From: Candidatus Daviesbacteria bacterium | GTDB taxonomy: Bacteria; Patescibacteriota; Microgenomatia; Daviesbacterales; UBA10151 | Direction: 5' to 3' | Assembly: GCA_016176335.1 (NCBI GenBank) | Contig: JACOXI010000003.1 | Location: 113,104 to 177,103 of the forward strand | Length of the DNA: 64,000 nt | Shown: positions 2,771 to 47,192 of the stretch, piece by piece | How the letters are laid out: every line of letters starts with the position of its first letter | How positions within the stretch are numbered: the first letter of the stretch is position 1 | Program-made: the position numbers and the translations under genes | Notes under the pieces: model-generated | Seen by the model: only the letters and a program-made list of their open reading frames with translations | What the model was told of the DNA's origin: nothing | Database searches by the model: none

Positions 2771-4507
2771 TTACTTGGTTTCCACATTAAACAATGGTCC
2801 CACTATTTGAATATTGGCAGGCGCTCTTTGGTTAAAGTAATTTTTAAAATCCGAACCTGAAAAAGTTATCCCGTTAATAGTAACTGAGGTCGTTCGTCCA
2901 CTTCCAAAATCAGCACTAACAGAAACTGAGGAAGCATTATCAATAGGAGTCCCTCCTCTTGATCTAAGTTCTTGTTTTACCCTATCAGAACTCCAGTTAT
3001 CCGTTAGGGGACAACCTTGTTTAGGATCAGGTGGAGGAGCTGGTTTATCAGGTTGGAAGACAAAACATCCTAAAGAGGAATCTTTTTGCATAAGCATGAT
3101 TACATTGGCAATATCTGCAACTTCATCTAACTTAAGCCAGGCAGATTTGGCATATTCATTTCTATACCCTTGTGCCGCATAAAAACAGGGAGAATCTTTA
3201 TCATAAGCTTTGGAAAACAGATCCCCAAAGTTGCCTACATCCCCACCTATATCCCTAATTCTTTTGGTGAAAGAAGTGCCGGATCCCCAAACATCAGCGG
3301 ATGAAAAAGTATACCCTCCGTCTGTGGAAGAATACCAGGCTTTAACCGCCGACCCACCCGATACCATGACTTTTCCGTTAGTTTCGTTGACAGCCCGCTC
3401 CCAGTTTCCTCCTTTGTTGCCGCCTTTGTAAACCTGACACTGTTGGGTGGTGCAAATCTCTCCTGACCCATTGTTGGTGTAAGCCAGGGCATAAGAGCGG
3501 GCAGCAGCGGCTTGAGCTTTTAAAGCCTCAATCGGCCAGGAATCAGGCATCTCGTAAATGCCCAAAAGATAGGTTTCTAAAGGTATAGAGCCGTATCCTT
3601 GGACAGAAATATTAATGTTTGGTCTTTGTTCAAAACTAAAATCTTGGAAATAAGCTCTTAAGATATCTTCATGGCTTTGTCCAGCTTGGGCTCTACCTAA
3701 AGCCCCATACTGGTTCATACCAACTCTGTGCGGGATACCGAAAGTAAAGAAGGCAAATGCCGGTCTAAAACCCGGGTCCAAATTCCGGTCATCAGTACAA
3801 AACAGGGGGCCTGCACCCAAAGAAGTAGGCAGATTTAAGGATGCCTGTCTTTGAGCAATGATGGCTTGTTGACGAGCAGTCAGTTGAGCAATTTTTGAGG
3901 ATAGCTCGGACTGGAAGGCTTTGGCTTTGCTTATCTCCCCTCCTAAAAATTTGGCATTTTTATCTACTTCTGCTTGCAGGATGGCCAACCTGGCTTTATC
4001 TTTTTCCAGTTTATCTTTTTGGGTCAACAGATCAATCACTTCTTGAGTTATTGAGGAAATAATTTGCCTGTCTTCTTTGGCAACTGTTTGGCGGTAGGAT
4101 AATTCTCTGAATAAATCACCGGCTTGAAAGGAAGAAAGAATGACAATTAAAGGGTCTGAAAGAAATGACCTGATGTAATAGGCCCTGACCCTCTCTTCCA
4201 AAAGAGCTTGCTGAAGAGCAATTTTATCTTCTCTGACATCTAACTCTTTTTGTTTAGTCTGAATATTGGCGGATAAAGTGTTTAAGCTTGCCTGGATTTG
4301 GGCCAGTTGTCTTTGTAAAGAAGAAAACTGTCCTTCCAAAGGCTTGGTGGCGGAAACAGACAGCTCTCTTTGCTTGTTTAAATCATTAATTTGTCTTTGT
4401 AAATCCTCTATCTCATCAGCATGGACAGTTGGTAGTAAGTAGTTAGTAGTAAGTAGTAAGGAAAAAAAGGTGAAGATAGCTATCAAAAACTTTTTGCCAG
4501 AAGACAT
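2771..4507 (-). CDS. SpoIID/LytB-domain protein with N-terminal signal/TM and long coiled-coil
   Basis: Matches the SpoIID/LytB amidase-enhancer family (VGMNQYGALGRA, AAAARSYALAYT, YSSTDGGYT). ATG at 4507; an alternative TTG start lies at 4537. Confidence 0.75.
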   Translation of the reverse strand: MSSGKKFLIAIFTFFSLLLTTNYLLPTVHADEIEDLQRQINDLNKQRELSVSATKPLEGQFSSLQRQLAQIQASLNTLSANIQTKQKELDVREDKIALQQALLEERVRAYYIRSFLSDPLIVILSSFQAGDLFRELSYRQTVAKEDRQIISSITQEVIDLLTQKDKLEKDKARLAILQAEVDKNAKFLGGEISKAKAFQSELSSKIAQLTARQQAIIAQRQASLNLPTSLGAGPLFCTDDRNLDPGFRPAFAFFTFGIPHRVGMNQYGALGRAQAGQSHEDILRAYFQDFSFEQRPNINISVQGYGSIPLETYLLGIYEMPDSWPIEALKAQAAAARSYALAYTNNGSGEICTTQQCQVYKGGNKGGNWERAVNETNGKVMVSGGSAVKAWYSSTDGGYTFSSADVWGSGTSFTKRIRDIGGDVGNFGDLFSKAYDKDSPCFYAAQGYRNEYAKSAWLKLDEVADIANVIMLMQKDSSLGCFVFQPDKPAPPPDPKQGCPLTDNWSSDRVKQELRSRGGTPIDNASSVSVSADFGSGRTTSVTINGITFSGSDFKNYFNQRAPANIQIVGPLFNVETK

Positions 4508-4594
4508 GTTTTTAATTTTACCATCACGAGCTACCAACTACCATCTACTGGCTACTGATTTTAACTTGTGGTAAGCTGAAACTAATGTCCAAAG

Positions 4595-4825
4595 TTACTT
4601 AAGAAGTTTGATAAATTTATCTTTTGTAATTTCTAAATCTCTTTTGATGATTTTTGTTAACAGCCCAATACCGATGGTATCCGATGGATGAATAGGTATG
4701 GTAGTTCTCCTTCCATCAGAATGTATATAAACTGCATGGCTGCCGCTCTGATCACGGAATTGAAAACCCAATTTTAAAGTCACTTTTACTAAGTCCCGTG
4801 CTTTAATTTGGGGTAATTTTGACAT
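4595..4825 (-). CDS. hicA: HicA-family type II toxin (mRNA interferase)
   Basis: 76 aa. GSHAVYIHSDGRRTTIPIHPSDTIGIGLLTKIIKRD matches the HicA consensus (GSHxxxxhpdgrrxtvPxH). Lies immediately downstream of hicB. Confidence 0.8.
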   Translation of the reverse strand: MSKLPQIKARDLVKVTLKLGFQFRDQSGSHAVYIHSDGRRTTIPIHPSDTIGIGLLTKIIKRDLEITKDKFIKLLK

Positions 4826-5068
4826 TTAGACGGTAACTTCAAGTGAAGTTAAACTGACAGGCTGGACTTTAGGAATTTCTTGTCTGTCTTCTTTAGAAAT
4901 CTTTAAATTAAGTTTGATAGCATCACGGATGTTGGTAATTGCTTCCTCCAGTGTCTTACCTTGAGTATGACAACCCTGTATTTCAGGACAATCGGCTACA
5001 AAAAAACCGTCTTCATCTTTCTCGATAATTACAGGAAAATTGTAGGTGGTAGTTTTAATCTTTTTCAT
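4826..5068 (-). CDS. hicB: HicB-family antitoxin (UPF0150 fold)
   Basis: MKKIKTTTYNFPVIIEKDEDGFFVADCPEIQGCHTQGKTLEEAITNIRDAI is the HicB N-terminal domain. ATG at 5068; adjacent to hicA with no gap. Confidence 0.75.
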   Translation of the reverse strand: MKKIKTTTYNFPVIIEKDEDGFFVADCPEIQGCHTQGKTLEEAITNIRDAIKLNLKISKEDRQEIPKVQPVSLTSLEVTV

Positions 5069-5138
5069 AGCCAAATTGTACCATAAAATATTTTCAATCA
5101 CTAGTCCCAAAACCCTAAAATATGCTAAGCTGAAAATA

Positions 5139-6290
5139 ATGTCCAAGGTTAATAAAATTCTCGCAATAATATTTTTATTTAGTTTTGGCCTACTGGTTTA
5201 TTTCCCTCAGACAGTAGCGGCAGCCAATTGTCCCTTTACTTTTGATCCTCCTGTACCTTACCAAAATATGGGTGATTTATCGGTAACTATTACACCTCGT
5301 GATATAAAAAGTGGAACTTACCAACTTGTGACTTACAAAGGAAATATCTCCAAACCTGAAATAAATACACGTGGTGATATTCAATTAATTACAGGAAAGG
5401 CTGTTACCACTCAGCTCAAAAAACCACTCTCTGGATGGGAAGCAGGCACTTACACACTCTACCTGAGAGACCGAGATGTTGAGGGTAGTGTTCAAGATGT
5501 GGCTGCTTGTAAAACAAGCTTTTCCTTATCAGATATCCCAGCCCAACCTACATGTACGGCTAGTATAGAAACAAAACCAATTGATCCTGATACTAAAGTC
5601 GTATTAAAAATCTCCGATATTGCATCAGGTAATTACGATATATTAATAAATAATGAGTTTGCCGAGACATATAACACAAGTACCGGTGAAACAGTGTTTT
5701 TATGTAAGGGTGGAACTGAAGATAAGAATTGCAAATTTAATGTTGGTACCTATACAGTCACTATTAAAAACCAATGCGGATTCGGCGATTTCACTTGCAA
5801 AAGCCGGCTGCAGTGCAAGCCAGTAGCTTTCCAGGTTGCTCCTTTAGGAAGTGCTGGAGGTGGGCAGGTAGATACAACTCAAGTAGGGACTGCGACTACA
5901 AAGCAATGTAAAAGTAAGGATGATCCAACTTTCAATAAGAACACCGATATGGTTTGTGCTCTAGCTGGAGGGATTCCATGCGAGAATAAAAACGATGGCA
6001 GAGGACCAGCTTTTGCTACTGCCATTGGCTGTATTCATACCTCTCCTGTTGAATTTATCAAGGACTTTTTAAAGTTTATCTTGGGGATTTCCGGAGGATT
6101 GGCATTTTTGATGATGCTTTTGGGAATATTTCAGATGCTGACTTCTGCCGGTAATCCGGAGACTTTATCAGCCGGCAGGGACAGGTTGCAATCTGCCGTC
6201 ATAGGACTTTTGTTTGTAATTTTTGCTGTTCTTCTGCTTCGAATTATTGGAGTTGATATACTGGGACTGGGAGGACAGTTTGGTTTATAA
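5139..6290 (+). CDS. Secreted Cys/Thr-rich protein with C-terminal VirB2/TrbC-like pilin domain (candidate pilus-tip adhesin or major pilin precursor)
   Basis: Signal peptide (MSKVNKILAIIFLFSFGLLVYFPQTVAAA) and many Cys. The C-terminus (GIFQMLTSAGNPETLSAGRDRLQSAVIGLLFVIFAVLLL) carries the same motif as the five small pilin-like proteins downstream. Confidence 0.65.
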   Translation: MSKVNKILAIIFLFSFGLLVYFPQTVAAANCPFTFDPPVPYQNMGDLSVTITPRDIKSGTYQLVTYKGNISKPEINTRGDIQLITGKAVTTQLKKPLSGWEAGTYTLYLRDRDVEGSVQDVAACKTSFSLSDIPAQPTCTASIETKPIDPDTKVVLKISDIASGNYDILINNEFAETYNTSTGETVFLCKGGTEDKNCKFNVGTYTVTIKNQCGFGDFTCKSRLQCKPVAFQVAPLGSAGGGQVDTTQVGTATTKQCKSKDDPTFNKNTDMVCALAGGIPCENKNDGRGPAFATAIGCIHTSPVEFIKDFLKFILGISGGLAFLMMLLGIFQMLTSAGNPETLSAGRDRLQSAVIGLLFVIFAVLLLRIIGVDILGLGGQFGL

Positions 6291-6299
6291 TTTAAACCC

Positions 6300-6617
6300 A
6301 TGGAAAAGCTTGGTGATTTATTAAAAGATTCCGGTGTGCCAAACTTTAGCGGTCAAAATGCCAAACTTGGAGTACTTTTATCCGGCCTTTTAAACATAGC
6401 TTTTTATATTGCTGTTTTTTTGGCTTTTTATTGGCTGGTGTGGGGGGCTTGGGCTTATCTTTTTGCTTCAGGTAAAAAAGAAGACCTGGCCAAAGCACGG
6501 GCGCGAATCAGTTGGGCCTTAATAGGGTTAATTGTGATCTTTTTGGCTTACTTTATAGCCAAATATGCTTCGGAGTTTTTCCCAACACAATTTGGTAAAG
6601 GAGGAGGACCGTTTTGA
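6300..6617 (+). CDS. VirB2/TrbC-like pilin paralogue 1
   Basis: 105 aa, two TM helices. Family motif WGAWAYLFASGKKEDLAKARARISWALIGL (family consensus [WF]GAFxW[ML]TSGG(x)7AR(x)2I(x)2AxIG). Confidence 0.6.
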   Translation: MEKLGDLLKDSGVPNFSGQNAKLGVLLSGLLNIAFYIAVFLAFYWLVWGAWAYLFASGKKEDLAKARARISWALIGLIVIFLAYFIAKYASEFFPTQFGKGGGPF

Positions 6618-7018
6618 GAGAATTTAGAATTAAGCTTTTTTTGAATTATTTTTTTATAGCTTTATTCTTGATTCTTACAGCTTTATTCTTACCAATCCCT
6701 GCTTATGCTGCATCTCCTGCTCCCGGGGTAGATATTAAAGAGTATTTTGGTTTTGGAAATATTGGCTCTTTGGGGGAAGGGACTACCAGACTGGTGGAGC
6801 CGGCTTTTCAGTTAACAGCAGCAGTGGTGGTGATCTACTTTCTTTTGGGGGCATTTAAATACTTAAGGGCAGGTGGCAACAAAGAGGAACTGGAGGGTGC
6901 AAGGCAAATGATTATCCATGCCATTATTGGGTTTATAATACTCATGTTTGCTTTTTTGGTGTTACAGTTTATATTATCGAACTTGTTTAAAGTAACTGAT
7001 TTTCAGATAATAGGGTAA
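6614..7018 (+). CDS. VirB2/TrbC-like pilin paralogue 2
   Basis: 134 aa. Signal peptide, then GAFKYLRAGGNKEELEGARQMIIHAIIG. Overlaps the previous gene by 4 nt (operon). Confidence 0.6.
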   Translation: MREFRIKLFLNYFFIALFLILTALFLPIPAYAASPAPGVDIKEYFGFGNIGSLGEGTTRLVEPAFQLTAAVVVIYFLLGAFKYLRAGGNKEELEGARQMIIHAIIGFIILMFAFLVLQFILSNLFKVTDFQIIG

Positions 7019-7020
7019 TT

Positions 7021-7353
7021 ATGGATTTTTCAAAAAATTTCGGCTCTATTAGTCCCCCGCCTGCTATAAAAGATTTTATTGGCAGTGACCCAACAGGCGC
7101 AGGTGGAATTAGTCAGTTTTTAAGTAATCTTGTGACCCTGATTTATGGTTTAGCTGCCATAGTTTTGCTTTTTATGATCCTTTGGGGAGCTTTTGACTGG
7201 ATGACTTCCGGAGGGGAAAAAGAAAAGTTAGAATCTGCCAGAAATAAAATCATCAGTGCCATAATCGGCATCATGCTTTTTGCAGTGGCTTTTGCTATCA
7301 TCCAGGTTTTAGGCCAATTTACAGGATTTACATTTTTCGTCGGCCAAAAGTGA
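7021..7353 (+). CDS. VirB2/TrbC-like pilin paralogue 3
   Basis: 110 aa. WGAFDWMTSGGEKEKLESARNKIISAIIG. Confidence 0.6.
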   Translation: MDFSKNFGSISPPPAIKDFIGSDPTGAGGISQFLSNLVTLIYGLAAIVLLFMILWGAFDWMTSGGEKEKLESARNKIISAIIGIMLFAVAFAIIQVLGQFTGFTFFVGQK

Positions 7354-7410
7354 CCCTAATTCAACCAGCACTTGACAAGTAGTTTATACTTTGAATAAGA
7401 TTAAGACATT

Positions 7411-7785
7411 GTGAAAAAATTAGTTGTTTTATTATCAACCATTATTGCGCTTGTAGCCCCCAAGATAGCCTTTGCCGCTACTCCACCACCAGTTGTTGTT
7501 AGTCCTCCTCCTCAAGGATATCAGAATTTGGGAAATTTTATTACCCAAGCCATCACTTTGATTTTCGGGTTCGCCATTCTGGTAGTTTTGGTCATGCTGG
7601 TTTGGGGAGCATTTGAGTGGATTACCTCCGGAGGAGACAAGGAAGCTGTTGGCAAAGCCAGAAATAGAATTATTAATGCTTTGATAGGATTGGCTGTGTT
7701 GGCTGTGGCATATGCCCTGACAAAAGTGGCTGCAGATTTTGTAGGCATCAATCTTCTCAATATCACAATACCCGGACCGCCATAA
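7411..7785 (+). CDS. VirB2/TrbC-like pilin paralogue 4
   Basis: 124 aa, GTG start. Signal peptide AFAATPPP. WGAFEWITSGGDKEAVGKARNRIINALIG. Confidence 0.6.
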   Translation: MKKLVVLLSTIIALVAPKIAFAATPPPVVVSPPPQGYQNLGNFITQAITLIFGFAILVVLVMLVWGAFEWITSGGDKEAVGKARNRIINALIGLAVLAVAYALTKVAADFVGINLLNITIPGPP

Positions 7786-7830
7786 TTTTTCTATTTGATC
7801 TTTACAGCCTCTTAATGTTAACCTTAAAAT

Positions 7831-8145
7831 ATGGGTCCTGATGCAGCCGGATTAGATCAGATTGAGCAAGTTTTTACAAGTGTTATATCTGTGATGGTAG
7901 GTTTGGGGTTTGTGGCGCTTTTGGTACTTTTGGTTTTGGCCGGGTTCAAATACCTGACCTCCGGAGGAGAGCAAAAAGCTGTACAGCAGGCTCATCTAAC
8001 AGTTACCTGGGCGCTTTTGGGAATACTTTTTATGGCCATTGCCTGGCTGCTGCTGCAGCTTATTGAAAACTTTACCGGAATAAAAGTCACTACTTTTGAT
8101 ATTAAAAGTTTGTGTGAAGTTGGTGGCAAGCAATTTTGTAAGTGA
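7831..8145 (+). CDS. VirB2/TrbC-like pilin paralogue 5
   Basis: 104 aa. AGFKYLTSGGEQKAVQQAHLTVTWALLG. Confidence 0.55.
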   Translation: MGPDAAGLDQIEQVFTSVISVMVGLGFVALLVLLVLAGFKYLTSGGEQKAVQQAHLTVTWALLGILFMAIAWLLLQLIENFTGIKVTTFDIKSLCEVGGKQFCK

Positions 8146-8216
8146 ATTGTTCCAGCAAGAATTCACTTGACAGTTTAATTTAAAACAACTTAATCTTAAG
8201 TTAGGTAAAAAACCTC

Positions 8217-9529
8217 ATGAGGGAACACTGGCAACCAACCATAGAAGCTAATCGGCCACCAAACCAGCGTGATTTGCTCACACAACTACCCAGACCACTT
8301 CGAATAGTTTCTGCTGCTTTATCAGCAGCCATCAGTTTAGCACTGGCTGCCTGTGGGCCTACCCCTGCGCCTACCCCTAAACCTAGTCCTGAACAACCAG
8401 GATCATCGCCTGCTGTGGCAACTAAAGTTGAGACCCCCCCTCCGCAAGGATTCTGCCTTTGGATGGAGAGGTATATTTTACACAAGGAACTCATCCTTCA
8501 GACGGTTCTTCTACTGGTATCAAAAGTGGCATTGACTTGGCCCCCAAAAGAGTGGTCAATTGTGCCTTGGGAACTAAAGCTTTAGTAGAGGAGCAAGCCG
8601 CCCTCGCTACTGCCTCCGGCATACTCACAATTGTAGGAAACGAGAAAGATGCCAATGACCCAAATCACAGTATTGTGGAAATACAAGAGAGTGGCACTGG
8701 ATTACGGTTCGGGCTGATGCATTTGAGTCAATTACCCGACCATGTCCAAGTTGGCGGTAGGGTCTTAGCAGGAGCCCCTATTGGTAAATCTTCTTGTGAG
8801 GTCCCGAAAGGAGGCAAGACTACCGGAGTCCACCTACACCAGTATGTCAAAGATAAAACGGGTAAATATCTTCCTATTAATGGATTCACTTTTTCCGGGT
8901 GGAGAGTTGCGGGAGACACTATGACTAAGGGGAATGAAAAAAGAGTGGCAGATCAAAGACGCTGCGCCACTGATCAAGCCTGTGGCGGAATCAGGAATGA
9001 TTTAGGAACATTTTGGAGGAGTTCAAAGAGTGGTCTAGTAGACTCTGTGAAAGTCGATCCCCTACCCACAGTTACTCCTACAAGAATAGTCCCAAAATCG
9101 CCACCTCGGCAGGCAGAGTCTATCCCTACCACCCCATCCGCAGCAGCTAGGTTATTCATCCAAGCACTCGTTTCTGGGGACAGCAACAAAGCCCTGCAAT
9201 TGATGCCAGTTCCTGGTCAGGCTACATACAAAGCGGTTATGCTTGGCATTTCAGATGCACTTCGTGCATGTTCAGGGAGCGTCACTGAAGCGTCACACGG
9301 TCTTCGAAGTTACTATAATATTAGTTTTACTCCTTCATGTGGAACATTTGGCAGTTATTACGACGCGCTGCCGTCACATGATGTTGGTAATGTTAAGGCG
9401 GCATTCGCGTTGCTTGGACAAATCGACCCCTTGCGTAATCGACGTTTGGTTGGATGTACGGTAACAGTCATGTCAGTCAATGACCAATGGAGGATTATGT
9501 ACTTACCTACATGCCTACCGTCTCAATAA
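8217..9529 (+). pseudogene. Lipoprotein M23-family (LytM-like) peptidase, split by a +1/-1 frameshift at a C7 homopolymer (8434-8440)
   Basis: Frame 0 encodes a lipobox signal (ISLALAACG) and a Pro/Thr linker. Frame 2 opens at 8432 and encodes M23 motifs (GIDLA...GTKALV; GVHLHQY). The two frames meet exactly at a cccccccc tract. The segment looks GC-richer than its neighbours. Confidence 0.55.
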
Positions 9530-9601: not shown

Positions 9602-11395
9602 ATGATACTTAGAATCAAGCGATTAGAATTAAGCAAAGCTTTCCTTTCGCATTTGCAAAACGTAAGAATTAAGCTTTTTGTATTCTTTATGCTTACTGCT
9701 TTATTCTTTTTGCTTATTCCTACTGCTTTTGCCCAAACCTCTACCCCCAGTGCAGTGCAGTCTACTGTCTACAGTCTACCGTCTACTGTCCAGCCCACCT
9801 CCCCTCTTTATACCGACCTTTTGGTAAATAATATGTTTCATACTTTTTCCTGTCTGGCTGTGGGGTCTTCTGTCATTGGCCAGCCATGTTTAACTTACCA
9901 GATGACCCAAAATGCCCAGGGTATGCTGCAAGGAGTACCTGTTTTATCCCAAACTAACCTGTCAGGAGGGGCTTTGGGGGCCACCACCTCTTTAATTGGC
10001 ATGTTGTATCTTAATCCGCCGGTTCGAACAGCTGATTATCTGGCATCTTTGGGAGAGCAGTTTGGAGTGGTAAAAGAAGCCCGGGCACAAGTTGGGGGAT
10101 CAGGAGCCCAGGTTTTAAGTCCAATTTTAAACCTTTGGCAGGTATCAAGAAATATATCTTATGTGATTATGATCATTATTTTTGTGATTATTGGGCTGAT
10201 GGTGATGTTTAGACAAAGAATCAATCCCCAAACAGTCATTACTGCCCAGGCAGCCCTTCCTGGATTGGTAATCGGCTTAATCTTAATTACTTTTAGCTAT
10301 TTTTTGGCAGGACTGATATCAGATACGGCATTTGTGGGAACCAATGTTGTGGGATATTATTTCTCTGCAGCACAGGGTATCCCTCCACAAAATTTGGTTG
10401 AAAATATGAAAGATAAGAATGTTTTGAGTATTTTCAGCCCGCTGACGGGAATTATTGACAAAGATAATGCCGCTAGTGCGCTGAGTTCTATATGGAACGG
10501 CTTAAGCGACGGAGCACAGCGCTTATTAACACTGTTGGCTATGTTTGTAACCGCCCAAACAATTTTGCAAGGCACAGAGTTTCTAAAGCTGATCAAAACC
10601 TTCGGAGAGCCCATTCAAGCGGCACTTACCACTATAGCAGTAGGCGCTACTTTGGCTAATCCTACAGCTCTTATAGGGCTTGCCTTAGCCTTTATAGCAA
10701 CTGCTGTATTGCTTTATTCCATGTTCAAATTATTGTTACGCTTAATCAATAATTATATAACCATCATATTTTTGACAATTACTGCTCCTTTCCAATTCCT
10801 GGCTGCATCGTTGCCTGGAAGACAAAGCATAGCCACAGGTTGGATCTTAAATATGCTTTGCAATGTTTTGGCATTCCCGGCGGTTTTTGCCGCTCTTTAT
10901 TTCGTGGCTTTTATTTTGGGACCAAATGTTGATGCTGTGAAAAAGCTACCTTTTCAAACCACTACCACTTCAATAACCGGAACTTCCACATTTCCTCTTT
11001 TTGGAGGTTTGGATCTTAACTTTATTAATATTCTTCTGGCATTTGGAGTTTTAGTGGCACTACCCAGTATCCCGGATATAATTTGCCGGACAATCGGCAG
11101 GGTGGGGGTAGCAGGACAGCTGATTGGCCAGGAAATTGGGGGCGGCATTGGCCAAGGCAGACAATATGCCGGTCAATTCCAGCAGGGCGTAGGAGCTGCC
11201 AGCGGTCAATTAGCCAGAGCCAGAGGCTTGTTTAATACTCCTGGGTATAAAATGGAGTTGATTCCCGGCACTATTGATCAATATAGGATTGTAGAAACAT
11301 ACGAGGCGGGAAGGGGTGCTACTTTTGGAGCTTTGACTAGACAAGGAATTCGCAAACCACCAAAATTAGAACCAGGCGTCAGGTCGGGAATATAA
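9602..11395 (+). CDS. VirB6/TrbL-like polytopic membrane protein of the type IV secretion-like system
   Basis: 597 aa. Signal peptide, periplasmic segment, then 6 or more TM helices. Gly/Gln-rich C-terminal tail. Its position after the pilin genes is typical for VirB6/TrbL. A possible later start is M at 9689. Confidence 0.55.
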   Translation: MILRIKRLELSKAFLSHLQNVRIKLFVFFMLTALFFLLIPTAFAQTSTPSAVQSTVYSLPSTVQPTSPLYTDLLVNNMFHTFSCLAVGSSVIGQPCLTYQMTQNAQGMLQGVPVLSQTNLSGGALGATTSLIGMLYLNPPVRTADYLASLGEQFGVVKEARAQVGGSGAQVLSPILNLWQVSRNISYVIMIIIFVIIGLMVMFRQRINPQTVITAQAALPGLVIGLILITFSYFLAGLISDTAFVGTNVVGYYFSAAQGIPPQNLVENMKDKNVLSIFSPLTGIIDKDNAASALSSIWNGLSDGAQRLLTLLAMFVTAQTILQGTEFLKLIKTFGEPIQAALTTIAVGATLANPTALIGLALAFIATAVLLYSMFKLLLRLINNYITIIFLTITAPFQFLAASLPGRQSIATGWILNMLCNVLAFPAVFAALYFVAFILGPNVDAVKKLPFQTTTTSITGTSTFPLFGGLDLNFINILLAFGVLVALPSIPDIICRTIGRVGVAGQLIGQEIGGGIGQGRQYAGQFQQGVGAASGQLARARGLFNTPGYKMELIPGTIDQYRIVETYEAGRGATFGALTRQGIRKPPKLEPGVRSGI

Positions 11396-11420: not shown

Positions 11421-14400
11421 TTAAAGAGCCATCTTATCAAATAACCACCCAGCCCAATCTCGACCATCAAACTTTTTGACCCATTTACCATCTTCAGATA
11501 CAAAATAGTAATACGGCTGCCTAAGTAATTTGTAGATTTCTGCCTCACCTTTATATGCCTGCACTCCACCTCCGGGCCCTTTATCCAGCAGCCAGTCTAC
11601 ATAAGCATTCCAAAACATTCTGGCAATATGCCTGGAACTCCCGGTATTCCTCTCCTTTTCTAGGGCTATAGCCGGATTAAACCTGCCATCCGGTAAAAAG
11701 ACATCTGTTTTCCTCAAATCCAATGCTCCGCCGGCATTTCTACTATCCGAGTACATTGTTCTAATAGTTTTTAATGTGTCCCAAACTCTGCCAAAAGAGT
11801 CCAATAGTATATGAAACACTTCTGTTTCTCCTTCAGGCTTCTGCAAAGCATCAGTTAATTTCTGCCTTATCTCTAACACTTTTTCAGCATTATTGGTTGG
11901 TTTCATAAATAACCCTTCATGATGAAGCCCTGTTTTAGGATCAATCCCACCAATCAAAGCAAACCACAAGGAGGTACCGCTATCCATCAGGTTAATAAAT
12001 TTAGTAATAGCAAACTGGCTGGCTATTCTTTGGCCTGTTAGTTCGTGAATTTTATCATCCATCATTGAAACAGCTCCTATTACTCCTTTGCGTCCTAAAT
12101 TACCAGCCATGGTGTCTGCATGTATAGGAGCCGCAGAGAGTGCTGCGGTAAATCTTCTGGCCCATCTTTTAGGCATTTTGGCAACTAAGGCTTCGATTTG
12201 CAAAGCAAACCTGAACTCCCCTCCTTGATCCTCTGTATAGTACCCAGTACCCATATATTCCGCATTACCATCCTTAGGTAAAAATCGTTCCTTGAAAGCA
12301 TCTCTGACATTGACCCAACCCAAAAGTGACTCTTCAACTGCAGCATCAAAAACAATCCCCTCTAAAGTCATCTGTTCTCCGGGAAACGCTTTGACCCTGC
12401 ATAAAGTCGGGTCCAAAGTCAAAAGTAACCCTGCGAGAATATCTGCATCTTCTGGCCGTATTAGTCCATCCCTGATTTGCCTGGCCTGGTCAAACACATA
12501 ATCAGGCAAAAGGGTATGGGTATTGTTGCTTTGATAAGCAAAATAGGTGTGGGCAGTATGTAAGGCTAAATAACTGTCTGCTGCAGTTGGGAAATCCAAA
12601 TCAACTTCTTCAGTAAAAACACCGACAACAACACCTTCCCCGTCATTACGTTCTGTTAACACATATTCACCTTTATAAATTTGGCTGTCCAGATTGACGC
12701 GCTGACGTTCCTTTCCTCCTGGTTTATCATAGACAATAGCTTTACCCAACTCATCAAAATCGCTCTCGCCTAAACCCACAGGTCTGCCATCTTGGCCAAA
12801 AACAATAATAGGTTGACCGTTTCGGGTGTAACCGAAAACATGCGGTCTTTTTAATTTTATTTGGCTAAGAGTAAGCGGTTGAGGTTCAACCTTCTCGGGC
12901 TTTAAATTACCGTCCTTATCGAAATAATCTAAGTAATCAGCTGCATAATCAGCATCAGAAAATTTTGCCGCAAAGCCTTTTTCACTAACCGCATCTAGAG
13001 CCCTTTCAAGCGCCTTCTGCACCATAGCTGACCTATATCTGGCTCTAAAGTTACCGTGCTTACCTTCGTCGTCTTTTTCATCCAGTCTTTTTTTAAAGTC
13101 CGGTTCATCCCAGATAGGCGAGTCGTCTCTGTATTTCATCCTAGTCCAATTCACCACAGCCATAACAGTCTTTTGAGCTAAATGAGCGGGTATTTGATCA
13201 ACAATTCTTTCCCTATCTTCCGGACTTAATCCGTTATATAAAGCTTGTTCCTCTGGGGAGAAAGTATCTCGTCTTTTACCCTTTGATATTCCATCCAAAA
13301 TCCACCCGATATGTTGATCCCTCGTAAATGTTGTTTTTCTTTTTTCAAGCGACCATTCGCTAATATCAGGATCTTCAGCTTTTTGATCCTTATGATTCTT
13401 TTGCCGGAACTTTAGGTACTCCCGGACGTATTTATTTCTCTCAATAAAGTAAACTGCTCCGCCTCTGATAGTTGTTTCATGAGTTACACCTTGCATCTGC
13501 ATAGCAACTTCAAAGCTGGCTTCTGAGATGGCATAAGCTTTCTCATATCGTTTCTTCTCTTTTTTTGTAATTCGTTTTAGACTCACCAATTTATCAATTA
13601 ACGTTTCCTTTCTTCCTAGAATTATTGTCCCTGTTCTAACTTCCTGCCTCAACGTATCCATCAAGACTTGAATCTTCCCTAATTTCACAGAATCCCGTAA
13701 TCTCTTAGGAAGACGGTCCGGATCTATACGTCTTTTACCAACATATTCCTGATAGTTGTTTCTATGAACATCACCGTTATCAAAACCTTCATACAAAGCC
13801 TTAAACGCCTCAGCAGATTGATGAATACCTATCCGCTCCTGATTAGTCCTGGTATGTAATTTTGCTTGCAAATAATATTTCCGATCTTCTTCCGTTAAAC
13901 TTTCCAAGTCATCATCATTTCTTTTAAGATGCTCATCGAGCTGCTCCAGGAATGTTGCTCTGTCTAAGCGTAATTTAGGATCAGAGTCAATCTCTGCATC
14001 ACGCCAGTCATAGTCTTTTAAGACAATACCTATTCCTCTTTCTTTCAATCTTTCATAAGTGATTCTTCTAATATACTCATGTACTTGAGTACTGTCTCCA
14101 AATTGTCCTCTTGAACCTTGGGCATTAAGAGCAAATTCTACCATTGCCAAATTATCCAGATTCCACGTATGAAATCCTACCCCTCCCTCTTCCCCTGAAC
14201 GGAGAGCTCTGGTCCATCTTTCCGGTCCTTCATGCATGGCCATGGCCATCGCACCCTGTTTAGCGCCTTCCTTGTTGTAATGCTCACTGTTATAAAAAGT
14301 GTGCCACAGGAAAGCCCTTCCTTCAAATTCCTGCCTCAACTCTTTCATAAAGCCAGCTGTCATCTTATCCGGCACATCATCCATACCTTCTTGCTCTAAT

Positions 14401-15671
14401 ACCAACTCATTTCCTCTTGCGCTCAACACTTTCTTGAAATTCAGCAAATTTTGCATTAACTCATTAGGATCATATCCCAGGGCACGATTTTTAAGCATTT
14501 GCAGAAAAGTTTCTTTTGCGATACGGAATTGGGCAGGAGTTTTAGCACTGATCGTGTAATAATCCGGATAACCGCCGTATGGTTCCCAATAAGTTTCTGT
14601 TCTCTCACCTTCCTCTTCTTCGCCCGGGATACGCCATTCGCCTTCCTTGTAAGGACCAGGGTTTTCACCATTAATTATTTTCCTAAGTTTTCCGCGCGTC
14701 CATACAATATATGCAGTTTCAATATCCAATAACCTGGGGTTAACCTGAGGATCTTTTGCTTTACCGAGCAGAGCATCCTCAAGGGCCTGTCGGGCTTCCG
14801 GCTCCCTTTGTGCCAATAAAGCCAAGGCCTGTTTTTTTGAATAGGTTTTATTCTTAAAACCCAAAAATATAGCGTTATAAACTTCATCAACTTCCTTGAA
14901 TAATCCTTTTCTATGAGCTTCCTTAAAATATATAAGTAAATCTTTTTCTACTTGTTCTCTTTCGGTAATTGGAAGACGCAGATTCAGATATTTGGCGGTT
15001 AAGGTTTCTAAATTCTCACCTCTTGTTTCAATCTCGGTGAAATCTTCAGGCCCGGGCCCGTCTGTCTTTTTTGCCAGTTCAACACCTCTAGCAATTCTCT
15101 CTGCATATGCCTCTTTTATTGCCTCAATGAGCGGCTTGTCAGGCTGCTTTGTGACTTGGTGCTCTTTCTCAAGATTTAAAGGATCTTGCAGGTATCTGTC
15201 TTTTTGCTCTCTCTCTACAAAAGCTTTTAACCCTCTAGACAATTCGTACAGCCTTGGACCATTTTCGGCATTCCATCTAACCTCATAAGACAGCTCCGTC
15301 TCCATATAGGTAATCTCCTCCACCAGCCATCTCCCTCTTTCCGGACTGACTTTCCATTCCGGTCCACTGGTTGGCTCTGGTAATACTGCAGTTTCAGCTC
15401 CTGCTATTTGTCTTATCCTGGCAACTTCTTTGCCTGTTGTTGGATCGGTAAAGACAGTAAAGCCGTCTCTTTCGCTCTTTAGATATTCTCCTGCTCTTTT
15501 AGGATCATAGTCCCTTGAAATATGCCAAGGTTTTTGAGGATTTTGCTCGCCGGAAGGTTGAACCGGAGGCTGGCTTTCAACGATTGCAAAACCTGTTTGA
15601 CCCTCGCCCCCCGGGGTTGCGCCTTCTGGTCCTAGTGTTCCTTCTGCCATATTTCTTTCTGGTTGTGCCAT
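11421..15671 (-). CDS. Very large (1416 aa) soluble protein of unknown function with acidic Pro/Glu-rich N-terminus; no recognisable catalytic motif
   Basis: Uninterrupted 4.25 kb ORF on the opposite strand to the flanking T4SS-like genes. No TM helices, P-loop, HExxH or methyltransferase motifs found by eye. Confidence 0.85.
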   Translation of the reverse strand: MAQPERNMAEGTLGPEGATPGGEGQTGFAIVESQPPVQPSGEQNPQKPWHISRDYDPKRAGEYLKSERDGFTVFTDPTTGKEVARIRQIAGAETAVLPEPTSGPEWKVSPERGRWLVEEITYMETELSYEVRWNAENGPRLYELSRGLKAFVEREQKDRYLQDPLNLEKEHQVTKQPDKPLIEAIKEAYAERIARGVELAKKTDGPGPEDFTEIETRGENLETLTAKYLNLRLPITEREQVEKDLLIYFKEAHRKGLFKEVDEVYNAIFLGFKNKTYSKKQALALLAQREPEARQALEDALLGKAKDPQVNPRLLDIETAYIVWTRGKLRKIINGENPGPYKEGEWRIPGEEEEGERTETYWEPYGGYPDYYTISAKTPAQFRIAKETFLQMLKNRALGYDPNELMQNLLNFKKVLSARGNELVLEQEGMDDVPDKMTAGFMKELRQEFEGRAFLWHTFYNSEHYNKEGAKQGAMAMAMHEGPERWTRALRSGEEGGVGFHTWNLDNLAMVEFALNAQGSRGQFGDSTQVHEYIRRITYERLKERGIGIVLKDYDWRDAEIDSDPKLRLDRATFLEQLDEHLKRNDDDLESLTEEDRKYYLQAKLHTRTNQERIGIHQSAEAFKALYEGFDNGDVHRNNYQEYVGKRRIDPDRLPKRLRDSVKLGKIQVLMDTLRQEVRTGTIILGRKETLIDKLVSLKRITKKEKKRYEKAYAISEASFEVAMQMQGVTHETTIRGGAVYFIERNKYVREYLKFRQKNHKDQKAEDPDISEWSLEKRKTTFTRDQHIGWILDGISKGKRRDTFSPEEQALYNGLSPEDRERIVDQIPAHLAQKTVMAVVNWTRMKYRDDSPIWDEPDFKKRLDEKDDEGKHGNFRARYRSAMVQKALERALDAVSEKGFAAKFSDADYAADYLDYFDKDGNLKPEKVEPQPLTLSQIKLKRPHVFGYTRNGQPIIVFGQDGRPVGLGESDFDELGKAIVYDKPGGKERQRVNLDSQIYKGEYVLTERNDGEGVVVGVFTEEVDLDFPTAADSYLALHTAHTYFAYQSNNTHTLLPDYVFDQARQIRDGLIRPEDADILAGLLLTLDPTLCRVKAFPGEQMTLEGIVFDAAVEESLLGWVNVRDAFKERFLPKDGNAEYMGTGYYTEDQGGEFRFALQIEALVAKMPKRWARRFTAALSAAPIHADTMAGNLGRKGVIGAVSMMDDKIHELTGQRIASQFAITKFINLMDSGTSLWFALIGGIDPKTGLHHEGLFMKPTNNAEKVLEIRQKLTDALQKPEGETEVFHILLDSFGRVWDTLKTIRTMYSDSRNAGGALDLRKTDVFLPDGRFNPAIALEKERNTGSSRHIARMFWNAYVDWLLDKGPGGGVQAYKGEAEIYKLLRQPYYYFVSEDGKWVKKFDGRDWAGWLFDKMAL

Positions 15672-16004: not shown

Positions 16005-16283
16005 CTACTTTTCTTCTTGGTATAACTGGTCGTGAGTTCCCAATAAGACAAAGTAAACAACAACAACTTCTCCTTCACTCTTCTCTGCATAAATTGCCCG
16101 CCAATTTGCAGTTATATCAATGCTTCGCAGTCCTTGGTATGGTTCTTTTAACAGGTGGTTATCTAATTCAAAGTCATTAGGGTTTCTGGAGAAAATCAAA
16201 ACTTTTTCCTTGAAGCTCTTGCGAACTCTCACATCTGCTTTTTTCAGAGTGCGTAAAAAGATAGGGGAATATCTGATGATCAT
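16005..16283 (-). CDS. yafQ: YafQ/RelE-family type II toxin (ribosome-dependent mRNA interferase)
   Basis: 92 aa. HLLKEPYQGLRSIDITANWRAIY...LLGTHDQLY parallels E. coli YafQ (HPLQGSWKGYRDAHVEPDWILIY...RTGTHAALF). Overlaps the upstream dinJ by 4 nt. Confidence 0.75.
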   Translation of the reverse strand: MIIRYSPIFLRTLKKADVRVRKSFKEKVLIFSRNPNDFELDNHLLKEPYQGLRSIDITANWRAIYAEKSEGEVVVVYFVLLGTHDQLYQEEK

Positions 16284-16564
16284 ATTCCCTGTTTTTCAAG
16301 CCAAGCAACCGCTTCCTCTCCGGTTTTAAATGCCGGGGATGTTCTGCCTGCCTTCCAATCTTTCTCTGCTTGGCGGATAGCGTTTTTTAAGTACTCGCTC
16401 GGTTCTTCATCTCTGGCGCTAAACTCCACAGACTTTGTCCTAATAAACTGTTTTAAGAATGCCTTAATGACAACAGATAAAGGCATGCCAAGCGCTTCAG
16501 CTGTGGCTTGGGCTTCTTTTTTAGTTTTGGGGTCAACTTTGGCAACAACTACTGCATAACTCAT
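16280..16564 (-). CDS. dinJ: DinJ/RelB-family antitoxin
   Basis: 94 aa. N-terminal ribbon-helix-helix region (MSYAVVVAKVDPKTKKEAQATAEALGMPLSVVIKAFLKQF) typical of DinJ. Forms an operon with the toxin. Confidence 0.75.
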   Translation of the reverse strand: MSYAVVVAKVDPKTKKEAQATAEALGMPLSVVIKAFLKQFIRTKSVEFSARDEEPSEYLKNAIRQAEKDWKAGRTSPAFKTGEEAVAWLEKQGI

Positions 16565-18340: not shown

Positions 18341-19384
18341 ATGGAATCGCACCCAATCCCACAAAATGTCACCACTTTCCAGTTCCACCTGGTTGGGGAT
18401 ATGACCTTAAAGCAATTTATATACCTTGCCACAGGCTCCGGATTAGCCTATTTTGTGTTTATTTTTTTTGTGGCGGATTATCCATATTTTGCTTGGCCGC
18501 TGATCTTGACTGCTGCCGGGTTGGGAACAGCTTTTGCCTTCTTGCCTATAAATTCCAGACCATTGGATTATTGGACTGCAGCTTTTTTAAAAGCAATTTA
18601 TTCACCCACCAAAAGAGTCTGGAAGAAAAATAATAAATCTTACCAGGAAGATCCTACCTTTAACAGCAGGCTTTTCACATATTTAGCAGGTCTTCAGCCT
18701 ATTCAACAGCAACCTGTACCTCCCGTCTATAATCCACCGCATGTTGCAAAGTCTGTCACCGCAGAAGCTCCACCCCTGCCCACCCCCGAACAGTTGGGAA
18801 AAACAGTTGATCTGGCAAGACAGGCACAAAACCTGCAAATGAAAATAATCCAAACCGAGCGAACCCTAAATCAGATTAAGACAGCCGCACAAAGTCCAAC
18901 CCAAATACCTGTTGATTACACGCAACAAGTTAATACCGTGCTGTCAGATTTGCAAAATCTGGTCACCCAAGCATCTCAAATCAAACAACAGATTGAGTTT
19001 GTTCATCAGCCTGAACCTACAAACACCCTTCCTTTGCCAATTGCCCCAAGGCCGAAGGTGACAGTAATTGTTCCTACCAAAGCAAAAGTGACCCAAGTGG
19101 CCCTGACCACATTCCCCAATGTCATAAACGGCATAGTTAAAGATGCCAATGCCAATTACCTGGAAGGAGTGGTGGTGGTAATTTATGATAAGGAAGGATT
19201 GCCTGTCAGAGCGCTGAAAACAAACAAATTAGGTCAGTTTACAGGTTCTACCCCCTTGCCAAACAGTATTTACACTGTTGAGCTGGAGAAAGATGGATTT
19301 GCTTTTGATGTTTTGCAGGTTGAATTAACAGGCACAACTTTACCGCCTTTAACAATTACGGCAAAGGGGCCGGGAGTTTCCTGA
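18341..19384 (+). CDS. VirB3/PrgI-like membrane protein with extended Gln/Pro-rich C-terminal region
   Basis: N-terminal pair of TM helices (LAYFVFIFFVADYPYFAWPLILTAAGLGTAFAFL) resembles the VirB3/PrgI family. Lies immediately upstream of the VirB4 genes. Function is inferred from position and topology. Confidence 0.4.
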   Translation: MESHPIPQNVTTFQFHLVGDMTLKQFIYLATGSGLAYFVFIFFVADYPYFAWPLILTAAGLGTAFAFLPINSRPLDYWTAAFLKAIYSPTKRVWKKNNKSYQEDPTFNSRLFTYLAGLQPIQQQPVPPVYNPPHVAKSVTAEAPPLPTPEQLGKTVDLARQAQNLQMKIIQTERTLNQIKTAAQSPTQIPVDYTQQVNTVLSDLQNLVTQASQIKQQIEFVHQPEPTNTLPLPIAPRPKVTVIVPTKAKVTQVALTTFPNVINGIVKDANANYLEGVVVVIYDKEGLPVRALKTNKLGQFTGSTPLPNSIYTVELEKDGFAFDVLQVELTGTTLPPLTITAKGPGVS

Positions 19385-19385
19385 A

Positions 19386-20135
19386 ATGAGTACAACGCAA
19401 CAACATCTGTCCATATCTGACATCAAAGACAATATAATTTTGCTAAAAGACGGCGGCGGGGCCTTGGTTTTGCAAATTTCCGCCGTAAACTTCAGGCTTC
19501 TATCTGAACGTGAGCAAATTGCCATCATCAGTAGCTTTGCCCAAATGTTAAACTCGCTTTCTTTTTCTATCCAAATCCTAATTTTTTCAGAAAGATTAAA
19601 TATCAACTCTTATCTTGTGCTTTTGGATAAAGCCCAAAAATTACAGTCTAATCCGATGCTTTCCAATATGATCATAAATTACCGCCAGTTTATCCAAAAT
19701 ACCATCAAGGAAAACGAGGTCCTGGATAAAAAATTCTATCTAGTGATCCCGCTTTTTAATCTGGAGCTGGGGCTTGCACCCACCAGAGTTATTTTGCAAC
19801 AAAAAATCAAAACCATACTGCTTCCCAGAAGAGATCAAATAATAAGACAGCTTTCAAGAGTGGGGCTGGCAGCAATCCAACTGAACACAAATGAGCTGAT
19901 TGAACTATTTTATGATATTTACAATGGCCAGTTTGTGGAAAGTATGGCCTCAAAGCCAATTAGCGCCGATACAATGCAGGTCCAATTAAACCAACCTCAA
20001 GAGGCTGTTAAAACTTCAACATACAAATCTCAAGTTGTTGATCAACCCCAAGCTCCGCTACAACCAAGCCCTGCTACTACCCAGTCATCAAGAACACACC
20101 CGTTTGTGGTGGAGGAGTTAGATGAAAATACCTAA
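19386..20135 (+). CDS. VirB4 N-terminal-domain-like protein (no ATPase motifs)
   Basis: SISDIKDNIILLKDGGGALVLQISAVNFRLLSEREQ resembles the N-terminus of Gram-positive VirB4/TraE/PrgJ homologues. Overlaps the next ORF by 14 nt in a different frame. Confidence 0.45.
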   Translation: MSTTQQHLSISDIKDNIILLKDGGGALVLQISAVNFRLLSEREQIAIISSFAQMLNSLSFSIQILIFSERLNINSYLVLLDKAQKLQSNPMLSNMIINYRQFIQNTIKENEVLDKKFYLVIPLFNLELGLAPTRVILQQKIKTILLPRRDQIIRQLSRVGLAAIQLNTNELIELFYDIYNGQFVESMASKPISADTMQVQLNQPQEAVKTSTYKSQVVDQPQAPLQPSPATTQSSRTHPFVVEELDENT

Positions 20136-24143: not shown

Positions 24144-24611
24144 ATGAGGCAAAAAACAATAGTTATATTGGGGATTTTGGGAGCGATAATTTTACTGTTA
24201 ATCTCTCAAAAAGTTTTGCTTGTCAGACCGATTTCTCTTCCATCCGGCACCCAGCCATCATCAACGCCTTCCCAGAACTCAACTCAACCAAATGAATCCC
24301 CCAAAATTTTATCCACCAAACCAGATCCTTTGGATCAGGCTGTTATATCATCGGATCAGCAGATTGAAATTGTATTTAACAGAGGCTTGGAAAACGAGGG
24401 CGAGTTTAAGATCAGAATAGAACCAAAAGTAAAGTATAAAATAACTCTTTCCGGGGATCATAAAACCGCCAAAATTACCCCAGAGGAATCATATGAGCTG
24501 GGAGTTGGCTACACCATGTTTATCACAGGAGATACCAAATTCGAAGGTGTGGGGCCTTGGGGGGAGGAAAAAACCTTCCATTTCCAAACCATAAAATACA
24601 GAGGTATCTAA
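24144..24611 (+). CDS. Small membrane-anchored protein with Ig-like beta-rich ectodomain
   Basis: 155 aa. N-terminal TM anchor and a Ser/Thr/Pro linker. Last gene of the + strand T4SS-like block. Confidence 0.5.
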   Translation: MRQKTIVILGILGAIILLLISQKVLLVRPISLPSGTQPSSTPSQNSTQPNESPKILSTKPDPLDQAVISSDQQIEIVFNRGLENEGEFKIRIEPKVKYKITLSGDHKTAKITPEESYELGVGYTMFITGDTKFEGVGPWGEEKTFHFQTIKYRGI

Positions 24612-38063: not shown

Positions 38064-38086
38064 AAATAATATCTTATCATGTCCGG

Positions 38087-47130: not shown

Positions 47131-47134
47131 ATTT

Positions 47135-47190
47135 AGTTTATCGTATATTGAATAAACGATATACGAAGAACGAAGTGTTACGATAAACGA
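47135..47190. repeat. R3-type motif block flanking four-helix-bundle gene (right): GTTTATCGTATAT + 8-bp inverted repeat TCGTATAT/ATATACGA + ACGATAAACGA
   Basis: Direct repeat of the left-flank 13-mer, plus an internal palindrome. Seen directly in sequence. Confidence 0.5.
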
Positions 47191-47192
47191 AT

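Follow-up and report, generated by a model that had tools for sequence, protein, structure and literature searches.

In the 64,000-nucleotide (nt) window analysed here, taken from contig JACOXI010000003.1 of the Candidatus Daviesbacteria assembly GCA_016176335.1 and used as the reference for all positions below, a gene predicted to encode a lipid-anchored M23 zinc peptidoglycan endopeptidase is interrupted by a frameshift that lies exactly on a run of seven C. The gene stands directly downstream of an array of pilin genes of a type IV secretion system (T4SS). The same break, on the same run, is found in a second lineage, whereas a third has eight C at this place and an intact gene. We propose that the window carries a genuine OFF allele generated by slipped-strand mispairing at a hypermutable poly-C, and that the site behaves as a reversible and stochastic ON/OFF switch of the contingency type; the chances that this proposal is right or wrong are, in our judgement, evenly balanced.

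Structure of the interrupted gene

Two overlapping frames are distinguished at this locus, the first of which is called ORF A (ORF, open reading frame; aa, amino acids), and the features are the following:

8167-8196, plus strand: promoter-like TTGACA (8167-8172), 18-nt spacer and TAATCT (8191-8196), noted by eye; predicted function
8217-8433, plus strand: 5' part of the gene, by translation a positively charged n-region, a hydrophobic core, the lipobox LAAC and a Pro/Thr/Ser linker
8434-8440, plus strand: C7 homopolymer, site of the frame break, read in frame 0 as ACC CCC CCT, the heptamer C_CCC_CCU
8441-8585, plus strand: nonsense tail of ORF A (...PQGFCLWMERYILHKE...WELKL, stop), with which the 122-aa stub translated from C7 ends
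8450-9004, plus strand, -1 frame: M23 (LytM/lysostaphin-fold) zinc peptidase domain from LPLDGEVYF to CGGIRNDL, predicted from profile, model and invariant residues
9113-9529, plus strand: C-terminal module (AAARLFIQALVSGD...), helices followed by strands; the closest relatives have unrelated modules in its place

The run CCCCCCC was read from the window sequence, and the two parts of the gene lie in different frames on its two sides. ORF A, in frame 0, extends from the ATG at 8217 to 8585 and translates into 122 aa. Its product starts with MREHW...IVSAALSAAISLALAAC46/GPTP..., the lipobox LAAC being followed by a Pro/Thr/Ser linker; the signal peptide RPLRIVSAALSAAISLALAAC46-G fits the pattern [LVI][ASTVI][GAS]C by which lipoproteins are recognised, the codon of Cys46 occupies 8352-8354, and the motif (...AAAC/LAAC) is kept in the alignment of the relatives. 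Glu72 is the last complete codon of the frame-0 part upstream of the run, which also takes in one base, the first, of the codon for Thr73; after the run ORF A adds 47 out-of-frame residues before its stop, the product containing the stub-specific peptide PQGFCLWMER. The -1 frame opens at 8432, directly past the TGA at 8429-8431 and 2 nt 5' of the run, has its first start codon, a TTG, at 8459 and ends with the TAA at 9527-9529, which gives a product of 356 aa.

The two frames are fused by the addition of one C (C8, 437 aa) or by the removal of two (C5, 436 aa). In the 437-aa fused frame the run corresponds to codons 73-75 and encodes Thr-Pro-Pro within the linker; (C)n is flanked by ACTAAAGTTGAGA on the 5' side and by TCCGCAAGG on the 3' side, and the junction peptide is VETPPSAR(I/T)LPLDGEVYFTQGTHPSDGSSTGIK. 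An initial annotation made from the sequence alone had placed a C7 at 8434-8440, the lipobox and linker together in one frame, and the opening of a second frame 2 nt before the run, and sequence and translation agree with it on each of these points. Its statement that a change of one base would fuse the frames holds for an extra C, although the protein thus restored has 437 aa and not the 430 aa that were given.

The GenBank record of the locus contains only the 356-aa ORF, started at the internal TTG, and in NCBI the product is the 'hypothetical protein' MBI2018223.1 (HYS96_00815) of a Candidatus Daviesbacteria genome. Neither the lipoprotein character of the protein nor the frameshift is visible in this record, and the gene model needs correction. 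The gene is richer in GC (0.484) than the pilin array (0.398), as the initial annotation had also remarked, and than the window as a whole (0.403), though other 1-kb bins of the window also reach 0.45-0.48. The promoter-like element sits in the 71-nt gap 3' of the last pilin gene, and TTGACA-N18-TAATCT is also present in the relatives L008 and L007 described below; read by eye, it is weak evidence for a promoter. A scan for promoter and terminator consensus sequences flagged nothing for the M23 gene, the element being passed over because its -10 TAATCT matches the consensus at only 3 of 6 positions.

The C7 state was compared with that in the Logan assemblies. The 356-aa ORF was found on six Logan contigs from six runs and the 122-aa ORF on a seventh contig, the window strain being thus represented in runs of two accession series (SRR4343428, SRR4343430, SRR4343435 and SRR12113383, SRR12113420, SRR12113424, SRR12113430). 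All seven assemblies have C7, and each is 100% identical to the window over 1.1-4.3 kb. There is an indirect hint that the SRR121134xx series comes from groundwater.

Length of the tract in the relatives

When the repaired protein was searched against 5.8 billion protein clusters, only 12 relatives were obtained, and for four of them the encoding DNA was read. Together with the window, the alleles at the tract are:

Window: GAGA-C7-TCCGCAAGG, frameshifted
L007 (P0002, 472 aa): GAGA-C8-TCCGCAAGG, in frame, one ORF, reads ATKVETPPSARTLPLDGEVYF
L008 (P0005): GAGA-C7-TCCGCAAGG, the same break, with the lipobox leader in one frame and the M23 domain in the -1 frame
L009 (P0004) and L010 (P0003): GAGACCACTCCCGAAAGG, in frame, without the run

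The closest intact relative, L007, reads ...VETPPSARTLPLDGEVYF... across the junction, and its residues there are those of the window's C8 reading except for a Thr in place of Ile. L009 and L010, also intact, carry ACCACTCCC at the tract site, the run being replaced by non-repetitive sequence, and in the alignment the more distant relatives are in frame without the run. Three of the five alleles are thus in frame. L008 has about 86% nt identity to the window across the M23 domain; its N-terminus is shorter and its C-terminal module unrelated. In L008 the protein sequence of the ORF A tail is not kept, and the stop of that frame has a different position. The N-terminus of the window gene also heads the intact proteins P0002, P0003, P0004, P0008 and P0009, and the locus is ancestrally one gene, not two. 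L007, L009 and L010 have an insert of 28 residues after MREHWQPTI, which the window and L008 lack.

The window, L008 and L007 are about equidistant (85.6-86.7% nt identity, synonymous divergence (dS) of 0.32-0.37), so that on any tree relating these sequences the length of the tract must have changed at least twice among the five alleles. Since no further frameshifting indel is found in the five alleles over about 1.3 kb, the recurrent change indicates that the run is an indel hotspot. When GTDB species genomes and JGI metagenomes were scanned with the alignment of the family, each yielded a single distant relative, L011 (Levybacteria) and L012; both are 40% identical and neither has the tract.

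Constraint on the broken alleles

In the M23 domain (184 codons), the pairwise ratio of nonsynonymous to synonymous rates (dN/dS) ranges from 0.26 to 0.39, and the lowest value of all pairs, 0.26, is that between the window and L008. The lineage-private synonymous and nonsynonymous changes number 13 and 12 in the window, 18 and 16 in L008, and 10 and 10 in the intact L007. The corresponding nonsynonymous to synonymous (N/S) ratios are 0.92 and 0.89 for the two broken alleles and 1.0 for the intact one, for a neutral expectation of 3.26 (binomial P against neutrality of 0.002 for the window, 0.0002 for L008 and 0.009 for L007). No stop is found within the downstream frames, in 356 codons for the window and 357 for L008.

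These data suggest that neither broken allele is an old pseudogene and that constraint has not been relaxed on the broken lineages. The 'decaying gene' envisaged in the initial annotation is unsupported where a long decay is meant, the 356 codons showing no second lesion and the purifying selection equalling that on the intact lineage. Since constraint is kept and no second lesion is seen, each frameshift would either be very recent compared with the divergence of the lineages, or affect a gene that is functional much of the time. The C7 run alone is not more than chance would give. What exceeds chance is that the only frame break of the gene lies exactly on the run, and likewise in a second lineage.

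The predicted M23 lipoprotein

Taken as a single sequence, the protein matches Pfam PF01551 with 21.8 bits (E 2.2e-4), below the cut-off of 28.7. Precomputed matches to PF01551 exist in the relatives P0007-P0010 and P0012, and the family profile matches solved M23 enzymes, with zoocin A at 6.6e-7, then LasA, lysostaphin and ShyA (range 6.6e-7 to 1e-3). In the AlphaFold model, the block means of the predicted local distance difference test (pLDDT) are 74-89 for the greater part of residues 1-160 and dip to 52-62 in places, and Foldseek retrieves, each with a probability of 1.00, lysostaphin, LytM, LytU and Csd3 (E-values from 3e-5 to 9e-4, target template modelling (TM) score 0.5-0.6), so that model and structural search both give the M23 beta-sheet fold. 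No NCBIfam family matches the fused protein. The M23 assignment made earlier on the letters alone is thus upheld by profile and fold, though Pfam by itself stays under its threshold.

Six residues (H93, D107, H151, H169, H206 and H208, fused numbering) do not vary among 11 members of the family. The HxH motif is H206-L-H208 (HLH) and D107 is the Asp of GIDLA, both of which had been recognised in the initial annotation; the HxxxD-like pairing proposed there for the latter is not retained, the more likely partner of D107 being the invariant H93, 13 residues upstream (H93-x13-D107). This spacing presumably resembles that of the LasA subfamily (M23A), not HxxxD. The individual invariant His and Asp residues would serve as zinc ligands or in catalysis. 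In the alignment a conserved Cys-rich extension, RRCATDQACGGIRNDL, follows the M23 domain. The protein shares with the M23 peptidases lysostaphin, LytM, zoocin A and LasA the fold, the HxH and the further invariant His and Asp; unlike them, it falls below the Pfam cut-off and has the Cys-rich RRCATDQACGGIRNDL extension.

The C-terminal module is modelled with block-mean pLDDT mostly below 50, reaching 50-61 at model residues 221-260. An NTF2-like identity was considered for it and rejected, the match not being significant. In P0011 (553 aa), the window's C-terminal module occurs at 50% identity on an unrelated N-terminal part. The C-terminal third is swapped among alleles (P0002-P0005) that are about 86-96% identical in the catalytic domain. 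From sequence and model, the whole would be a predicted lipid-anchored M23 zinc peptidoglycan endopeptidase composed of a signal peptide with Cys46, a Pro-rich linker, the M23 domain and a swappable C-terminal module. An M23 product started at TTG 8459 would have no leader and no export signal, and would probably stay in the cytoplasm, away from peptidoglycan.

A proposed contingency-type switch

In the model that we propose, slipped-strand mispairing during replication would add or remove one C and so toggle the frame. In the ON state (C8), the lipid-anchored M23 endopeptidase would be displayed on the outer face of the membrane, where it would most likely make a local opening in the wall of the cell itself for passage of the pilus or secretion channel, or else attack the wall of a partner or host, the variable C-terminal module setting its target. 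In the OFF state (C7) of the window strain, translation from ATG 8217 ends as the 122-aa lipoprotein stub, and no enzyme would be exported. The OFF allele may be slightly leaky, as a rare -1 slip on C_CCC_CCU would give exactly the C8 protein. The reversibility of the change within a population, its adaptive value, the substrate of the enzyme and the leakiness belong to what we infer.

The OFF state resembles that of a contingency locus because the same tract is ON in one lineage and OFF in two, with ORFs that are otherwise intact and constrained. As in such loci, a homopolymer of at least seven G or C within the ORF changes the frame; ON and OFF alleles exist among strains (C7 in the window and L008, C8 in L007); and the OFF alleles have no further lesion and evolve under purifying selection. 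In Neisseria, Haemophilus, Campylobacter, Helicobacter and Bordetella, homopolymeric tracts (simple sequence repeats) are reported to make genes for surface and envelope functions phase-variable (PMC1891110, PMC5084427, PMC8355987). The likeness to the contingency loci of these pathogens concerns the poly-G/C of at least seven in the 5' part of the ORF, the exported surface-related protein, the difference of one unit in length that sets ON or OFF, the ORF otherwise intact, and the position beside pilus or secretion genes. In contrast with them, the tract is here short and of two lengths only, the genome is not enriched in tracts, and the organism is an uncultivated Candidate Phyla Radiation (CPR) bacterium from groundwater, no host-adapted pathogen.

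Reversible frameshifts at homopolymer tracts are reportedly known also in Mycobacterium tuberculosis, including one in glpK (bioRxiv 10.1101/717272; PMC10334774). In glpK, as here, a short coding homopolymer gains or loses a base, the loss of function is transiently heritable, and it is recognised by its recurrence across isolates, whereas the present case comprises five alleles only and its target is a wall hydrolase, not a metabolic enzyme. The glpK tract is said to be 7 C long, and reversion has reportedly been shown in M. tuberculosis by experiment and across thousands of genomes. The mechanism would thus be of a well-known kind, here in a new lineage.

Several observations weigh against a switch. 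The C8 of L007 and the C7 of L008 are each read from one short Logan contig, populations like L007 and L008 being present in runs SRR22388204 and SRR22388350, and the seven concordant assemblies of the window strain represent one clonal strain, that is, replicate sequencing and not independent evolution. They show no heterogeneity in tract length (7/7 C7), although as consensus sequences they would not display minority variants. By our own reasoning, a branch at the tract would make contigs end near 8411 and 8463 at k=31; the ends recorded (8191, 8196, 8399, 7594/7596, 7653, 8772, 9634, 9804, 9974 and 10249/10254) do not cluster, and the graph gives no signal of heterogeneity. Among about 15 billion predicted proteins, neither the exact C8 nor the exact C5 fusion of the window strain or of L008 occurs. 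The window is depleted in C7 runs (2, compared with 9.1 +/- 3.8 in dinucleotide-preserving shuffles), and neither maintenance of the tract nor enrichment of such tracts in the genome is observed: the run is absent from L009 and L010, where it has not been maintained; CCC is an ordinary codon here (21% of Pro codons), with no sign of selection for the run; and its retention in three lineages is unremarkable, with P estimated from dS at about 0.2. Tracts of C7/C8 are also at the short end for high-rate switching.

In our reading the site works like a contingency switch, but it is not filed here as a proven one. Of the phase variation suggested in the initial annotation, the comparative part, ON and OFF alleles at the same tract, is found; its defining property, reversible heterogeneity within a population, is not seen in the seven assemblies. 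That the locus is a true contingency switch, and so the first repeat-mediated phase-variable locus described in the CPR, toggling a surface-anchored wall-cutting enzyme that works with the secretion pilus, is a tentative and rather doubtful claim. Full-text searches of the literature returned no paper containing both Patescibacteria and phase-variable, and no report of repeat-mediated phase variation in the CPR; the nearest case is a hypervariable repeat gene in a Gracilibacterium. If the claim is true, CPR/Patescibacteria, with their tiny genomes and few regulators, would vary envelope functions of the T4SS/pilin apparatus through hypermutable repeats, and the family of M23 lipoproteins with variable C-terminal modules would be a likely host-interaction factor. 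The C-terminal module would then set which cell wall is attacked, and subpopulations of this ultrasmall and probably host-dependent bacterium would differ in attachment to the host or in its breach.

Alternative explanations

The strong rival to the switch is a recent plain inactivation, which we regard as a real possibility, if one that we would not favour. The run would be a mutational weak spot, and the window and L008 strains would have lost the enzyme independently by a fixed one-base deletion that is effectively irreversible, the gene having only just begun to decay. The uniform C7 in seven libraries, with no in-frame variant on record, and the shortness of the tract are in agreement with such a loss, as is the depletion of C7 runs in the window, which is expected if they are costly rather than used. 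The enzyme is perhaps dispensable, an SLT protein (21895-24135) and a SpoIID protein (2771-4537) being encoded nearby. Its family is fluid: modules have been exchanged, and L009 and L010 have lost the tract. Plain loss fits less well with two independent breaks on the same 7-8 nt and none elsewhere in about 1.3 kb of five alleles, as breaks repeated at one run imply a very high local indel rate, working in both directions. Neither broken lineage has a second lesion or a rise in N/S, so that both losses would have to be very recent by coincidence. If the frameshift is only a fresh loss of function, the gene is an ordinary strain-level pseudogene.

Recoding, in which C7 would be the working form and -1 ribosomal frameshifting on C_CCC_CCU, or slippage of RNA polymerase adding a C, would yield full-length protein and stub in a low fixed ratio, is unlikely as the main mode. 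It is suggested by a perfect X_XXY_YYZ heptamer in frame 0, on which a -1 slip gives exactly the C8 protein, and by the occurrence of C7 in two lineages that have diverged and in which purifying selection acts on the downstream frame. The class of motif is shift-prone in Escherichia coli, where C_CC.Y tetramers are among the few that shift and C_CCC_CCC is listed among the efficient heptamers (PMC4066793). Against a motif-less background of about 0.06%, however, motifs free of stimulators shift in E. coli only 2.1- to 10-fold more, a very low frequency (PMC4066793). In the window, the 136 nt at 8425-8560 fold with -28.1 kcal/mol, compared with a shuffle mean of -34.1 (z = +1.65), which gives no stimulatory structure, and no Shine-Dalgarno-like element was found in the sequence upstream of the run. 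The frameshift is moreover not conserved, L007 being in frame with C8 and L009 and L010 lacking the motif, and it is this together with the missing stimulatory structure that makes recoding improbable as the principal mode. Efficient transcriptional slippage is mainly known for longer A/T runs, which also counts against it. Compared with the programmed -1 frameshifting of dnaX and of the IS3/IS911 transposases, the locus has the X_XXY_YYZ at the junction of overlapping frames and a trans-frame product that is the fused protein; it differs from them in having no stimulator, a frameshift that is not conserved and a 0-frame product without a conserved C-terminus. Of the features that mark a programmed -1 site, only the heptamer is thus found, a stimulator and a conserved requirement (three of the five alleles being in frame) being absent.

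That the true sequence is C8, with an intact gene, and that C7 is an error of sequencing or assembly, is very improbable. Homopolymers are classic sites of indel errors and the window comes from a metagenome-assembled genome, but C7 was obtained in seven separate runs with a pipeline other than that of the deposited genome, and for L007 the same Logan pipeline gave C8. The only other C7/G7 run of the window, on the minus strand at 26644-26650 inside dnaA, is in frame (…LQSPPKNN…). The 'assembly indel' offered as an alternative in the initial annotation is rejected on this evidence.

That the locus consists of two real genes, one for a small lipoprotein and one for a cytoplasmic M23-like protein with its start at TTG 8459, is hardly credible, even though NCBI annotates the 356-aa ORF only and an AAGGA lies 8 nt 5' of the TTG, since the intact homologues read through as single ORFs with the junction of the window's C8 reading and the AAGGA...TTG there consists of ordinary codons, conserved residues (R)ILPL precede the TTG, the tail of ORF A is unconserved, and an M23 wall peptidase without signal peptide cannot reach its substrate, so that the orthologues also dispose of the 'two separate genes' that had been left as an option.

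The T4SS neighbourhood

The genes of the secretion system around the M23 gene are the following:

5046-8145, plus strand: six tandem genes with T4SS_pilin (PF18895, VirB2-like), directly 5' of the M23 gene
9602-11395, plus strand: polytopic membrane protein of 597 aa, directly 3' of the M23 gene, no Pfam or NCBIfam family
18341-19384: PrgI-like protein, T4SS core
19386-20135: TrsD-like ORF, translationally coupled to the VirB4-like ATPase
20122-21879: VirB4-like ATPase, VirB4 being naturally split and not frameshifted
21895-24135: SLT-domain protein of 746 aa, T4SS core
24608-25708 and 26344-27660: dnaN and dnaA, respectively, beside the T4SS core

The 'pilus locus' of the initial annotation does contain pilins, which belong to type IV secretion (VirB2-like, PF18895) and not to type IV pili. 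In L007, L009 and L010, too, the homologue comes after pilin genes, and the PrgI-like, TrsD/VirB4-like and SLT genes (18.3-24.1 kb) are found 9-15 kb downstream of the M23 gene. In the Levybacteria relative L011, the M23 homologue (3992-5563) is followed by a 648-aa protein (5613-7559) that is 26% identical to the 597-aa protein (E 2e-32), the pairing of the M23 gene with the polytopic membrane protein being conserved between Daviesbacteria and Levybacteria. The M23 gene always has this membrane protein of about 600 aa behind it, which may be a VirB6-like channel component. In Patescibacteria T4SS, VirB2 arrays are frequent in Microgenomatia, gene clusters are situated close to dnaA, and VirB1-like proteins are reported to include some with M23 domains (PMC12102498); the neighbourhood in the window matches this layout. 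In the one relative that is open to genetics, the T4SS/pilin apparatus is essential to epibiotic growth, as cited in PMC12102498.

Wall hydrolases of known T4SS, such as VirB1, PrgK of pCF10, TraG of pIP501 and the peptidase/lysozyme homologues by virB4 in Ca. Southlakia epibionticum, stand likewise in a T4SS/pilin neighbourhood, and the likeness concerns a monoderm-type system and a peptidoglycan-degrading enzyme, which is here predicted. Unlike VirB1, TrsG and CD419, the window protein has no SLT or CHAP domain, the SLT domain being encoded by the separate gene at 21895-24135, and it differs from the VirB1-class hydrolases in being a lipoprotein with a variable C-terminal module. It may work like a VirB1 analogue, though it is no member of the VirB1 family.

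Several other genes were noted around these blocks. The first pilin gene encodes 414 aa, its pilin domain being preceded by a long N-terminal extension. On the minus strand, a gene situated just upstream of this array (2771-4537) encodes a 588-aa SpoIID-domain protein with a PcsB-like coiled coil, of a kind involved in wall remodelling. A 1416-aa ORF on the minus strand (11421-15671) matches neither Pfam nor NCBIfam and runs convergently towards the pilin/M23 block, and a RelB antitoxin with a ParE/YafQ-like toxin (16005-16564, minus strand) lies between the pilin block and the T4SS core.

Other overlapping frames in the window

To gauge the quality of the assembly, three further overlaps were considered as candidate frameshifted genes and rejected. 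The TrsD-like and VirB4-like ORFs form an ordinary pair joined by translational coupling, in which GGAGGAG precedes the ATG, and the separate TrsD family is matched. A class-I aminoacyl-tRNA synthetase (38087-40237, minus strand, 716 aa), whose anticodon-binding domain match ends at profile position 106 of 148, overlaps at its end by 64 nt a 175-aa ORF (37623-38150, minus strand) that has no family match; the junction has no homopolymer and gives no evidence of a frameshift. The ORFs at 46768-47325 and 47193-48995 are two unrelated genes. The former, on the minus strand, belongs to the 23S rRNA-intervening-sequence protein family (PF05635, 110 bits) and adjoins a VanW/G5 protein.

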